Shown: positions 17,868-20,000 of the stretch, piece after piece
Layout: each line of letters starts with the position of its first letter
Position numbering within the stretch: position 1 is the first letter of the stretch
Assembly: GCA_040770465.1 (NCBI GenBank)
Contig: JAXGJB010000024.1
Location: 1-39,971 of the forward strand
From: Methanothrix sp.
GTDB lineage: Archaea > Halobacteriota > Methanosarcinia > Methanotrichales > Methanotrichaceae
Direction: 5' to 3'
DNA length: 39,971 nt
Position numbers and translations under genes: made by a program
Notes under the pieces: model-generated
What the model was told of the DNA's origin: nothing
Database searches by the model: none
The model's input: the letters and a program-made list of their open reading frames with translations, nothing else

Positions 17868-18797
17868 TCACTTGAAGGCCGCTTCCAGCGGGGGGATGAC
17901 CTGCTTCTTCCTCGATAGGACGCCCTTCTTGTAGATGGAGCTGTTCTCGATCTTCCCATCGAAGGCCTTCTCGAACTTATCGACCGGGGTTCCCACGAAG
18001 AGGAGATCGCTCGCCTCCTTCATGACGTCGGTGAGCATGATCAGAACGAAGCTGAGACCCTCATCCTTCCGCACCTTCTCCATCTCGTCCAGGATCTCCT
18101 TCCTCCTGGGCGCGAGGACCGAGAGGTCCATGACCTCGATCTGGCCGACGCCGGCCTTCGTCCCTGCGAAGTCGAAGTGCTTGTAGTCGCCCTTGACGAT
18201 ATCCAGGGCCGTCTTCGTGGATATGTCGCTCTTGGCGGTGAGCATCGCAATCCCGTACGCCTCGTAGTCCTCGCCGATGATCTTGGCGAGCTTTGCCACC
18301 TGCTCCTTGTCCTTCTCGGTGCAGGTTGGGGACTTGAATAGGACGGTGTCGCTCAGGATCGCAGAGATCATCACGCCCGCCATCTCCTTGGTGATGGGGA
18401 CCTTGTACTGATCGTACATCGCCGAGATGATCGTCGCGGTGCTTCCGACGGGCTCGTTGTGGAAGAAGATGGGGCTTGCTGTCTGGACGTCGCCGATCTT
18501 GTGGTGATCTATGACCTCCATAAGGGTCGCCTCCTTGATGTTGTCCACCGCCTGGGCGACCTCGTTGTGATCGACGAGGACGATCTTCTTACCCTTGCCG
18601 TCGGTGATCGTCTCCGGCACCGGGACGCCGAAGTGATCGAGGACGAACTTGGTCTCGCTGTTGATCGTTCCTGCCGCCGCCGGGACGTATATTTCCGGCA
18701 GGTTCAGCTTGTTTTTCAGGTTCGCGTAGGAAATAGCCGCAGCTACTGAGTCAGTGTCTGGACTTTTGTGGCCAACCACGTAGACGTTATCAGCCAG
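17868..18797 (-). CDS. ppaC: Manganese-dependent (family II, DHH) inorganic pyrophosphatase; probable CTG start at 18797
   Basis: GHKSPDTDS, LVDHNE, IDHH, PVGSTATI, ILSDTVLFKSPT, SRKKQVIP. The track's GTG (18806) is part of the SD GGAGGTG. Confidence 0.93.
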   Translation of the reverse strand: MADNVYVVGHKSPDTDSVAAAISYANLKNKLNLPEIYVPAAAGTINSETKFVLDHFGVPVPETITDGKGKKIVLVDHNEVAQAVDNIKEATLMEVIDHHKIGDVQTASPIFFHNEPVGSTATIISAMYDQYKVPITKEMAGVMISAILSDTVLFKSPTCTEKDKEQVAKLAKIIGEDYEAYGIAMLTAKSDISTKTALDIVKGDYKHFDFAGTKAGVGQIEVMDLSVLAPRRKEILDEMEKVRKDEGLSFVLIMLTDVMKEASDLLFVGTPVDKFEKAFDGKIENSSIYKKGVLSRKKQVIPPLEAAFK

Positions 18798-18920
18798 ATG
18801 AAACACCTCCGAAGATAATCAACGCGCGACTTCGACTTAAACCTTTGCTACGCGGCGTTTATGGCCGAAATTATATTTGGATCCAGCCGGCAAGATGGGA
18901 CGAAACGATGCTGACAGGCA

Positions 18921-18930
18921 TATTTATATA
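18921..18930 (+). promoter_or_regulatory. TATA box for the putative ncRNA
   Basis: TATTTATATA about 22-30 nt upstream of the first hairpin stem. Confidence 0.6.
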
Positions 18931-18951
18931 GTACTTCGCTTATGGAGTGAA

Positions 18952-19195
18952 GGTTCCCTTCAGAGGACTGGCAGGAGCCCAGGCATCCGCCGTCGCCGTG
19001 ACTGCCGGCGCAAAGGGGGAACGACACGAAAAGCCGCGTTGATAGGTCCTTGGGGGAGATAATGACTATCGTCTGCCCATGACCTCAAGACAACCCAGAT
19101 GCGGTACATATAAGCCCGCTGCGAGGGTCACTGAGCCGACTGCGGATAGTCCAGAGGATGAGGCTTCAGAGTTAGCAGAGCATCGGGCGACATAC
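18952..19195 (+). ncRNA. Putative three-hairpin box H/ACA guide sRNA
   Basis: Three stem-loops, each followed by G-ACA (19024, 19090, 19190); hairpins 1 and 3 have an internal pocket and a GA/GA K-turn; upstream TATA; no credible ORF. Confidence 0.65.
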
Positions 19196-19301
19196 CAACA
19201 TCATCCGAACTGTTAATATCAATTTCTACATATATTAGTCGTTCCGCTCGTTTCTTCCATTGGCTTAAATATCAGCAGCTCTTGATCGTGGTCTGCAGAC
19301 T

Positions 19302-20000
19302 ATGAGGGGAATTCTGATCACCTTCGAGGGCATCGACGGGAGCGGGAAGTCTACGATCGTCTCCGAGGTCGCCCGAACCATCGCCGAAGATGGAAAGCCA
19401 CCATTCGCGGGAAGACGTTTTTTCTTCACCGCCGAGCCGACCGACGGCGAAGAGGGACGGCTATTGAGAGAGAGGCTCAAGATGGACTCAGCAGCGGAAG
19501 GGCTAGGGCCGAGGTCTATGGAGGCGGAGAAGATGGAAGAGCTCTTCTTATTCATGGCCGACCACGCCCGCCACCTGGCAGAGACGGTGATCCCATCCCT
19601 CGAAGAGGGTATGGTTGTGATCTCAGACCGATACTCCGACTCACGGGTCGCCTACCAGGGGGCCACCCTGCGCGAAGTCGTGCCCCACCCCCTGGAGCTG
19701 GTGAGAGAGATCCATCGTCCATGGAGCGTCCATCCCGACAAGACGATACTATTTTCGATAGATCCGGCCGTGGCGGTGGAGAGGTGCCTTTTGAGGCATG
19801 AAGAGGAGGCGATATCCATGACGGCGAAAGCCCCGGAGAAGTTCGAGCGGGAGGAGTTCCTCCGAATGGTATCAGAGAATTTCGAGATGATGACGAAGCA
19901 GGAGCCCGAGAGGTTCGTCATCATCGACGCCGCCCGAGAAAAGAAGGAGGTTCTGGCAGAGACCATGGAGTCCCTGGCCAAGATCCTCGAAGACGTCTGA
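19302..20000 (+). CDS. tmk: Thymidylate (dTMP) kinase
   Basis: ITFEGIDGSGKST, LFLFMADHARH, VISDRYSDSRVAYQG, FEREEFL. Confidence 0.95.
   Translation: MRGILITFEGIDGSGKSTIVSEVARTIAEDGKPPFAGRRFFFTAEPTDGEEGRLLRERLKMDSAAEGLGPRSMEAEKMEELFLFMADHARHLAETVIPSLEEGMVVISDRYSDSRVAYQGATLREVVPHPLELVREIHRPWSVHPDKTILFSIDPAVAVERCLLRHEEEAISMTAKAPEKFEREEFLRMVSENFEMMTKQEPERFVIIDAAREKKEVLAETMESLAKILEDV

Follow-up and report, generated by a model that had tools for sequence, protein, structure and literature searches.

A very probable three-hairpin box H/ACA guide RNA gene in Methanothrix and its relatives

The archaeal box H/ACA guide RNAs Pab40, Pho40, Pf7 and Afu4 carry three H/ACA motifs each (Muller et al. 2008, PMC2377435). 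Motif 1 acts at position 2588 of the P. abyssi 23S ribosomal RNA (rRNA), as seen by CMCT and also in vitro, and motif 3 acts at position 2016, in helix 69; on the basis of a rule that sets the ACA box at 14-15 nt, the target of motif 2 of Afu4 was moved off the A loop, with A. fulgidus 2632 (P. abyssi 2678) taking the place of 2601 (P. abyssi 2647) (PMC2377435). Two Haloferax hairpins have been described as homologues of Pf7 stems II and III (Grosjean et al. 2008, PMC2584109), and both stem-loops in the Haloferax RNA sR-h45, SL1 and SL2, measure 78 and 80 nt, with SL1 making the pseudouridine Psi2605, the equivalent of H. marismortui 2621 (PMC7075261). Here we describe an RNA gene that compares closely with these guides and that lies in a 39,971-nt stretch of Methanothrix sp. 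DNA (assembly GCA_040770465.1, contig JAXGJB010000024.1, positions 1 to 39,971; hereafter, the window). With a probability that we put at about 0.9, positions ~18950-19195 of the plus strand are one gene for a small RNA, driven by a TATA-box promoter of its own, and the product is an archaeal box H/ACA guide RNA with three hairpins.

The RNA gene is about 245 bases long, and positions 18953-19192 of the plus strand fold into three hairpins of the stem/pocket/stem type. A multi-hairpin archaeal H/ACA guide had been proposed for this interval in an earlier reading of the DNA made without database searches (the sequence-only reading), and the proposal is now supported by the architecture, the ACA boxes, the kink-turn (K-turn) signatures, the strand, the conserved guides and the rRNA complementarity of hairpins 2 and 3. 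The RNA is real and conserved, and is probably expressed. It is new as an annotation for the Methanothrix group, and is not new in kind, nor does it involve a new mechanism. Our literature search found no paper on this RNA in Methanothrix or Methanosarcina, although Fig. S1 of Muller et al. and Additional file 8 of Grosjean et al., which contain homologous sequences, may list methanogen copies. The finding adds an unannotated, highly conserved RNA gene, which no Rfam model detects there, to Methanothrix-type methanogens and their relatives (Methanosarcina, Methanocella, ANME-2 and Methanoperedens), and predicts pseudouridylated uridines in the functional core of the ribosome of ecologically important methane producers.

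The case rests on comparison with relatives because the folding energy of the RNA is unremarkable: the minimum-free-energy fold of positions 18940-19200 of the plus strand shows hairpins 1 and 3 as the sequence-only reading described them, and the energy is indistinguishable from that of shuffled sequences (z = -0.48 on the plus strand and +0.51 on the minus strand), which is evidence neither way. In a blastn search with positions 18900-19230 against 41 genomes, namely the host (G000) and 40 relatives, a match was obtained in 25: the host itself, 22 of 24 others from its family, Methanotrichaceae (f1), 2 of 13 from Methanosarcinaceae (f3) and 0 of 3 from family f2. Identity is 87-93% within the genus, and sequences from other genera align only at query positions ~50-306, that is, along the RNA itself. 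The MAFFT alignments contain three units with an ACA after each, and in the family alignments the guide strands are the most conserved portions of the RNA; the ACA at 19106-08 never varies, and the remaining two ACA boxes come close to this, with AUA and AAA as variants.

The structure was drawn from the window sequence and then scored on 23 family sequences. Among its 52 pairs, 17 are changed on both sides, compared to a mean of 8.4 in shuffled alignments, with none of the 500 shuffles reaching 17, and 96.2% of the cells are paired; as a control, sliding the 3' partners by 1-3 columns lowered the paired fraction to 39-45% of the cells, and no more than 8 pairs then had changes on both sides. 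Thus, covariation across the family, which the sequence-only reading had named as a check, is clearly present. Run without a supplied structure, RNAalifold recovered the same lower and upper stems in all three hairpins, plus the distal stem of hairpin 2. Because G.U pairs are frequent (columns 12/74, with UG in 15 sequences; 96/161, with GU in 21; 111/146, with GU in 18), the plus strand is fixed as the one that carries the RNA.

Hairpin 1 (18953..19026, plus strand, as for all features of the RNA below) is delineated, like the other two, by covariation and RNAalifold. Its lower stem pairs 18953-60 (GTTCCCTT) with 19015-22 (GGGGGAAC), the pocket strands are 18961-66 and 19010-14, and the upper stem CTGGCAG/CTGCCGG joins 18968-74 to 19002-08, with an extra pair position, 18967/19009, which is A.C here and A-U or G.U in other genera. 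Above the upper stem lie sheared G.A pairs (18975-76 with 19000-01), a C-stem of two pairs (18977-78/18995-96) and a 3-nt bulge (18997-99), and the ACA box is at 19024-26. In helices 1-3, which make up this hairpin, 8 of 17 pairs are changed on both sides; all 23 sequences agree at A18976, U18999, G19000, A19001, G18977 and C18996, and the alignments show that the core GAGG and GCA(A) of the pocket is kept in copies from other families. All the elements that the sequence-only reading had drawn for hairpins 1 and 3 were found where it placed them, with the same stems emerging from the covariation and RNAalifold analyses. At locus L021 (genome G024), the hairpin 1 pocket reads AAAAAGA/AUAAAC in place of GAGG/GCAA (aligned to 18961-67 and 19009-14), with the stems and the K-turn kept, and hairpin 1 of that genus may have been retargeted or may be decaying.

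Hairpin 3 (19114..19192) has a lower stem GCCCG.../...CGGGC (19114-18/19184-88) that continues as CUGC/GCAG (19119-22/19175-78) across a 5-nt bulge (19179-83), with an alternative register that pairs 19120-22 with 19180-82. The 5' guide is 19123-30 and the 3' guide 19170-74 (AGUUA); the upper stem pairs 19131-37 with 19162-69, leaving U19165 bulged, and is followed by G.A pairs (19138-39 with 19160-61), a C-stem pair (19140/19156) and a bulge (19157-59), with the ACA box at 19190-92. The elements CTGAGCC-GA and GATGA-GGCTTCAG are located as quoted in the sequence-only reading. Four of the 7 pairs of helix 9, which belongs to this hairpin, are changed on both sides, and neither GAC 19138-40 nor UGA 19159-61 varies in any of the 23 sequences. 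On its 3' strand, the lower stem contains a 5-nt insertion specific to this genus, and this insertion gives rise to the CUGC/GCAG register, which loops out 19179-83 and preserves both the 5-nt 3' guide AGUUA and a helical path of 15 nt; Methanosarcinaceae have a 2-3-nt insertion at the equivalent site, with an analogous GCAC/GUGC register.

Hairpin 2 (19033..19108) had to be redrawn. The helix drawn in the sequence-only reading, its ACA at 19090 and its statement that there is no clear K-turn do not hold: the box is the ACA of 19106-08, whereas the 3' guide strand starts with the ACA of 19090, and a GA/UGA K-turn is present. In the corrected structure, the lower stem pairs 19034-39 with 19099-19104, the 5' and 3' guides are 19040-48 and 19090-98, and the upper stem CUUGGGG/CCUCAAG joins 19049-55 to 19083-89, topped by G.A pairs (19056-57 with 19081-82; UGA at 19080-82), a C-stem pair (19058/19077), a bulge (19078-80) and a distal stem (19064-66/19071-73). 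In relatives the upper stem reads CUUGUGG/CCACGAG, CUUAUGG/CCAUGAG or CUUGCGG/CCGCAAG. Across 25 sequences, 8 of 17 pairs of this structure are changed on both sides (2.4 in shuffles, with 0 of 500 reaching the observed count), and both guide strands are almost invariant. The helix originally drawn (UUG..AGGUC with GACCUCAA) pairs in 95.2% of the cells, but its 5' side does not vary, so that changes on both sides are seen in 0 of 8 pairs; an AGGUC/GACCU helix is possible as an alternative conformer of hairpin 2. RNAalifold also pairs the invariant GGU of the 5' guide (19045-47) with ACC of the 3' guide (19093-95), a modelled pairing by which the empty pocket may be partly closed. Two possible folds of Pab40 motif 2 have been reported by Muller et al. 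(PMC2377435).

The three hairpins share a K-turn pattern, P2-GA-GC...GC-CGU-GA-P2 in hairpin 1, P2-GA-G...C-CAU-GA-P2 in hairpin 2 and P2-GA-C...G-GAU-GA-P2 in hairpin 3. In all three, the 5' strand of the upper stem goes directly into G-A and the 3' strand enters the stem through N-N-U-G-A, which, judging from the sequence, is the signature of a K-turn whose non-canonical helix is the upper stem and whose 3-nt bulge lies on the 3' strand. All 23 sequences keep the A of the 5' GA, the 3'-strand UGA and the closing pair unchanged; the single variable position, which is A in L022 in hairpin 1 and U or A in several genera in hairpin 2, is one that tolerates change in K-turns. Beyond the K-turn, hairpin 1 has two G-C closing pairs.

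Targets of the guides were predicted on the 23S and 16S rRNAs of a genome of the same genus (G001) and of a Methanosarcinaceae genome (G026), in place of those of the host, by scanning every U with canonical H/ACA geometry and comparing with 300 shuffled guides per hairpin. Hairpin 3 pairs with UAAC-UA-UGACCCUC at U1950 of the G001 23S rRNA (4+8 bp, score 11.5) and hairpin 2 pairs best with GGUUGU-UC-GCCUAUUAA at U2580 (6+9 bp, score 13.5), scores that none of the 300 shuffles reached in either case; the second target of hairpin 2 is CUGGGUU-UA-GACC at U2611 (7+4 bp). For hairpin 1, the target is UUGC-UA-CCUC at U2521 (4+4 bp), which 18 of the 300 shuffles equal. The matching of pockets to rRNA proposed in the sequence-only reading, carried out on the rRNA of G001 given that the host assembly contains none, gave matches beyond the reach of shuffled guides for hairpins 2 and 3 and a weak one for hairpin 1.

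Alignment to a 2902-nt E. coli 23S copy places these sites at 1914 (hairpin 3), 2553 and 2584 (hairpin 2) and 2494 (hairpin 1), which we take to be 1915, 2555, 2586 and 2496 in the standard E. coli numbering, 1-2 above that of the record, judging by the landmarks A2451, U2552/G2553, U2585 and A2602. The numbering can be connected to that of P. abyssi through the RluE, RluB and RluC sites, which we assume to be 2457, 2605 and 2580 in E. coli. Because Pab35 makes the same three sites at P. abyssi 2549, 2697 and 2672 (PMC2377435), the offset between the two numberings in this region is a constant 92, so that P. abyssi 2588 becomes E. coli 2496, 2647 becomes 2555 and 2678 becomes 2586; P. abyssi 2016 corresponds to E. 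coli 1915, in helix 69. Hairpin 3 is accordingly placed at the published site of motif 3 and is predicted to guide U1915 in the helix 69 loop, and perhaps U1917 as well. Hairpin 1 is predicted to guide position 2496, beside the peptidyl-transferase centre: the guess of the sequence-only reading that its pocket matches this region is borne out to the extent that UUGC-UA-CCUC is present in the 23S rRNA of the same genus and coincides with the published site of Pab40 motif 1. For hairpin 2, the predicted sites are U2555 of the A loop, with the best pairing, and/or U2586.

The Methanotrichaceae RNA is, by architecture and targets, a probable orthologue, that is, a copy, of the Pab40/Pf7/Afu4 RNA. 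Both have three motifs per RNA, each with a K-turn or kink-loop (K-loop) and an ANA box, and their targets come in the same order, 2496, then 2586/2555, then U1915 of helix 69. The comparison was made by architecture and targets rather than by sequence alignment, with no Rfam match here, and the Methanothrix RNA differs in its 7-bp upper stems and in the genus-specific 5-nt insertion of hairpin 3. Hairpins 2 and 3 also correspond to SL1 and SL2 of sR-h45, with a similar size, a similar position of the GA and a shared helix 69 target; in most other families, the 5' guide of hairpin 3 ends in AA, which leaves U-A-U-G unpaired and recalls the atypical 'UNUN' pocket described for SL2 (PMC7075261), whereas the guide GAGGGUCA of this genus pairs fully and yields a typical U1915 pocket. 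Unlike the Methanothrix RNA, in which the hairpins are 4-7 nt apart and have an ACA each, sR-h45 has no hairpin 1, a 56-nt linker and an H box (AUA); on this comparison, sR-h45 is best described as a two-hairpin form of the Pab40/Pf7/Afu4-type RNA. The single-hairpin H/ACA small RNAs (sRNAs) Pab91/Pf9 and S. islandicus sR115 and sR435 share the lower stem, the bipartite pocket, the upper stem, the tandem sheared G.A pairs and the ACA 14-16 nt from the pocket (PMC7991803, PMC11077068), whereas the Methanothrix RNA joins three such units in one transcript and has a different set of targets.

The choice of site for hairpin 2 repeats the ambiguity between the A loop and 2586 that is seen in Afu4 motif 2, with the difference that hairpin 2 forms 15 bp with the A loop and 11 bp with 2586, the A loop thus being the better partner. 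The 5' guide UUGAUAGGUC forms 9 bp with the flank of the A loop compared to 4 bp with the flank of 2586, whereas at two positions the 3' guide of Methanotrichaceae, ...CCCAG, is the better fit to the 2586 site. In the Methanosarcinaceae genome G026, the 3' guide ACAACCUCA and the segment UGAGGUUGU from the A loop of that genome form 9 bp, compared to 5 bp with the 2586 flank, and in most other families, Methanosarcinaceae included, this guide reads ...CC(C/U)CA, again favouring the A loop. The published homologues argue for 2586, because haloarchaeal SL1, unlike hairpin 2, which pairs best with the A loop, has been shown to act at the 2586-equivalent site and because Muller et al. reassigned Afu4 motif 2 to it (PMC7075261, PMC2377435). 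We regard action at the A loop as having a little less than an even chance and action at 2586 as rather improbable. Only slightly less doubtful than the latter is the scenario in which hairpin 2 is a dual-site guide that modifies both U2555 and U2586 through the same pocket, with the balance shifting between lineages, and in which, jointly, the insertions in hairpin 3 (5 nt here and 2-3 nt in Methanosarcinaceae) mean that the ACA 'ruler' measures the helical path and not the number of nucleotides. Should hairpin 2 indeed be a dual-site guide, it would represent a natural guide drifting between two ribosomal sites with a common GGUU core and would settle the old dispute over Afu4 motif 2. The RNA offers a natural test case for the action of motif 2 at the A loop versus U2586.

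The proteins expected to work with such a guide are all encoded in the host genome, with scores above the curated cut-offs: Cbf5 (TIGR00425, 453.6 bits), Nop10 (PF04135, 85.7 bits), Gar1 (PF04410, 51.3 bits) and L7Ae (PF01248, 92.4 bits). Each hairpin would bind one set of Cbf5-Nop10-Gar1-L7Ae, with L7Ae occupying the K-turn above the upper stem; the pocket strands would pair with the 23S rRNA on both sides of an unpaired U-N dinucleotide, and the U would be placed in the active site of Cbf5 and converted to pseudouridine. The conserved and covarying architecture, the signatures of the boxes and K-turns, the match to rRNA, the genes for the proteins and the occurrence in RNA libraries are observed; that the proteins bind, where the RNA starts and stops, and the modified uridines themselves are inferred.

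Beyond the family, a covariance model of hairpin 3 (R2) matched 66 of 151 genomes of the phylum, from 14 of 27 families, among them 18 of 18 Methanosarcinaceae, with 0 of 24 in family f5 and 0 of 19 in family f12 under strict filters that lose weak matches. The model of hairpin 2 (R1) places this hairpin directly upstream of hairpin 3 in 17 of 18 loci, and that of hairpin 1 (R3) detects hairpin 1 upstream of hairpin 2 in 8 of 23 loci, including records of Methanocella sp. and of Candidatus Methanogaster from the methanotroph group ANME-2. In the other 15 of the 23 loci, including 8 of 8 f3 loci and one Methanosarcina record, the hairpin 1 model, run with default filters, detected nothing at E<=1, which means that the hairpin was not found there rather than proven absent. 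The loci with hairpins 2 and 3 and no match to hairpin 1 include L042, L047, L049, L051, L055, L059, L063 and L066 (f3) as well as L084 (Methanosarcina sp. DH2); Methanosarcinaceae may have a two-hairpin form like that of Haloferax sR-h45, or a diverged hairpin 1. A pattern scan of a named genome collection, for which 80 of at least 119 matching stretches are listed, gave the following distribution: among the matches listed, 65 of 80 are archaeal, from Methanothrix and other Methanotrichaceae, Methanosarcina and its relatives, Methanocella, Methanoperedenaceae, ANME-2 and Methanomicrobiales, and 15 of 80 are bacterial, which is the chance level if, as we roughly estimate, some hundred matches to this pattern would arise by chance. 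The Pab40/Afu4/sR-h45 guide appears to be an old, widely kept euryarchaeal RNA that is not peculiar to thermophiles or halophiles. In one genome of family f7 (G054), the hairpin 3 model matches at two places, on contigs C24 and C9 (53.2 and 50.3 bits), which suggests that it carries a duplicated helix 69 guide.

In the window, the RNA lies in an interval of 495 nt, by the list of open reading frames (ORFs), between two genes named as in the sequence-only reading, ppaC (312 aa; 17868..18806, minus strand) and tmk (232 aa; 19302..20000, plus strand), both outside the RNA; the N-terminus of the tmk product contains GIDGSGKST, a P-loop. Upstream of the RNA, a promoter-like box TATTTATATA can be read at 18922-18931, within which the TATA-box-like element TTTATATA (18924..18931, plus strand) is located ~25 nt 5' of the base of hairpin 1. 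By eye, a T/A box stands at equal spacing throughout the family alignment, with TTTAT in 20 of 23 rows, and would serve as the promoter of the RNA gene; there is a further A/T-rich box between the RNA and tmk. The order ppaC-RNA-tmk is found in most of the family, and these flanks are absent around the RNA in genus g7 (L018, L039-L044). At the loci checked in other families, there is no ppaC or tmk within the fetched flanks, and hairpins 2 and 3, often along with hairpin 1, are still present.

Parts of the stretch occur in 19 of 21 listed sequencing runs from 14 studies, and 13 of these runs are recorded as RNA. The contigs of four RNA-library runs, which belong to three studies, were compared with the window. 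The contigs of X1 (206 nt; 19024-19198), X2 (163 nt; 19024-19185) and X8 (217 nt; 18972-19187) consist almost exclusively of the H/ACA RNA, and that of X9, a single-organism transcriptome, reaches from ppaC across the RNA over 1538 nt and includes 87 nt of diverged sequence. In X1 and X2, the short sRNA contigs have depths of 1105 and 913 and the ppaC contigs depths of 94 and 66-119, values from which, coming from contigs, no ranking is possible; the gaps between contigs over the promoter region and over the interval between the RNA and tmk are not evidence. The X1 and X2 contigs, which come from one study, both start at 19024, the ACA of hairpin 1; this shared start could reflect a strain break in the assembly or processing between hairpins 1 and 2, alternatives between which contigs do not distinguish.

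Several observations weigh against the interpretation of the RNA as a three-hairpin guide. The host assembly, a 94.85% complete genome, contains no large-subunit or small-subunit rRNA, the complementarity of hairpin 1 is short and statistically weak, and our search found no pseudouridine map for Methanotrichaceae. The RNA-library contigs show neither ends nor strand nor level, and DNA carry-over is possible. The Rfam search suggested in the sequence-only reading returned no family, either of the H/ACA class or of a relevant other class: there was no match at the gathering score in the whole window, and at E<=10 over 18800-19310 there was no HgcG, only chance-level matches to HIV_FS2 and PVX_3, so that the RNA does not belong to the HgcG family of the three-motif sRNA in the form that Rfam models it. 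The geometry also deviates from the quoted rules. Only one Watson-Crick closing pair is conserved beyond the K-turn in hairpins 2 and 3. The distance from the top of the pocket to the ACA is 14-15 nt in hairpin 1, and in hairpin 2 it is 14 nt for the 2586 register and 16 nt for the A-loop register, the latter exceeding the 14-15 nt given for archaea by Muller et al. (PMC2377435). From the upper stem to the ACA of hairpin 3 there are 20 nt in linear count in this genus, 15 nt with the bulge 19179-83 looped out, and 15 nt in the genera of the family that lack the insertion. Each hairpin has 7 Watson-Crick or G.U pairs between the pocket and the G.A pairs, compared to a K-turn 5-6 bp above the pocket in published guides (PMC2377435, PMC7991803), although the count becomes 6 if the pair adjoining the G.A pairs is assigned to the K-turn, and the counting convention of the papers may differ. 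In sR-h45, which is experimentally active, the GA is at 22-23 in SL1 and at 156-157 in SL2, which begins at 131 (PMC7075261); the distance from the start of the stem-loop to the GA is thus 21 and 25 nt, versus 22 and 24 nt in hairpins 2 and 3, so that the geometry is within the range of a proven guide.

These deviations, together with the 8 bp of hairpin 1 that 18 of 300 shuffles equal, would fit a conserved RNA whose K-turns are bound by L7Ae, and perhaps also by Cbf5, and which guides no modification, for instance, an rRNA-folding chaperone or a decayed guide whose complementarity serves for binding only. There is a precedent in S. islandicus sR666, a hairpin bound by Cbf5 and L7Ae that has no guide strands (PMC11077068). 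Nevertheless, we consider this explanation improbable: the pocket strands are the most conserved part of the RNA and match U-N sites whose pseudouridylation by the homologous Pyrococcus and Haloferax motifs is experimental, none of the three hairpins has lost its ACA, and genera without the hairpin 3 insertion have a spacing of 15 nt. A cis-acting role, either as a 5' untranslated leader or attenuator of tmk or as a regulatory element common to tmk and the divergent ppaC, would account for the shared orientation of the RNA and tmk and the distance of 110 nt between the RNA and the tmk start, for the conserved gene order in most of the family and for the one 1538-nt RNA-library contig that joins ppaC and the RNA. 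The RNA is not, however, the leader of tmk, because the ppaC/tmk flanks are missing in genus g7 and in the other families checked, where hairpins 2 and 3, and often hairpin 1, persist without either gene nearby; with the second A/T-rich box separating the RNA from tmk, this leaves a cis-acting element very improbable. Least credible of all is that the region codes for an overlapping small protein. Four small ORFs do exist in the window (61 and 45 aa on the plus strand, 59 and 49 aa on the minus strand), but the homologous frames are broken by a stop or a frameshifting length change in 13, 15, 16 and 19 of the 23 family sequences, and the substitutions are compensatory in helices rather than codon-like. 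The three-hairpin H/ACA guide thus stands as the preferred reading of the locus.

A minor observation concerns one of the E. coli rRNA records. In E. coli strain G1/2 (L035), the 23S rRNA is annotated as 2833 nt long, 69 nt below the 2902 nt of L036, with identical first and last letters, and this copy seems to contain an internal deletion or an assembly gap.

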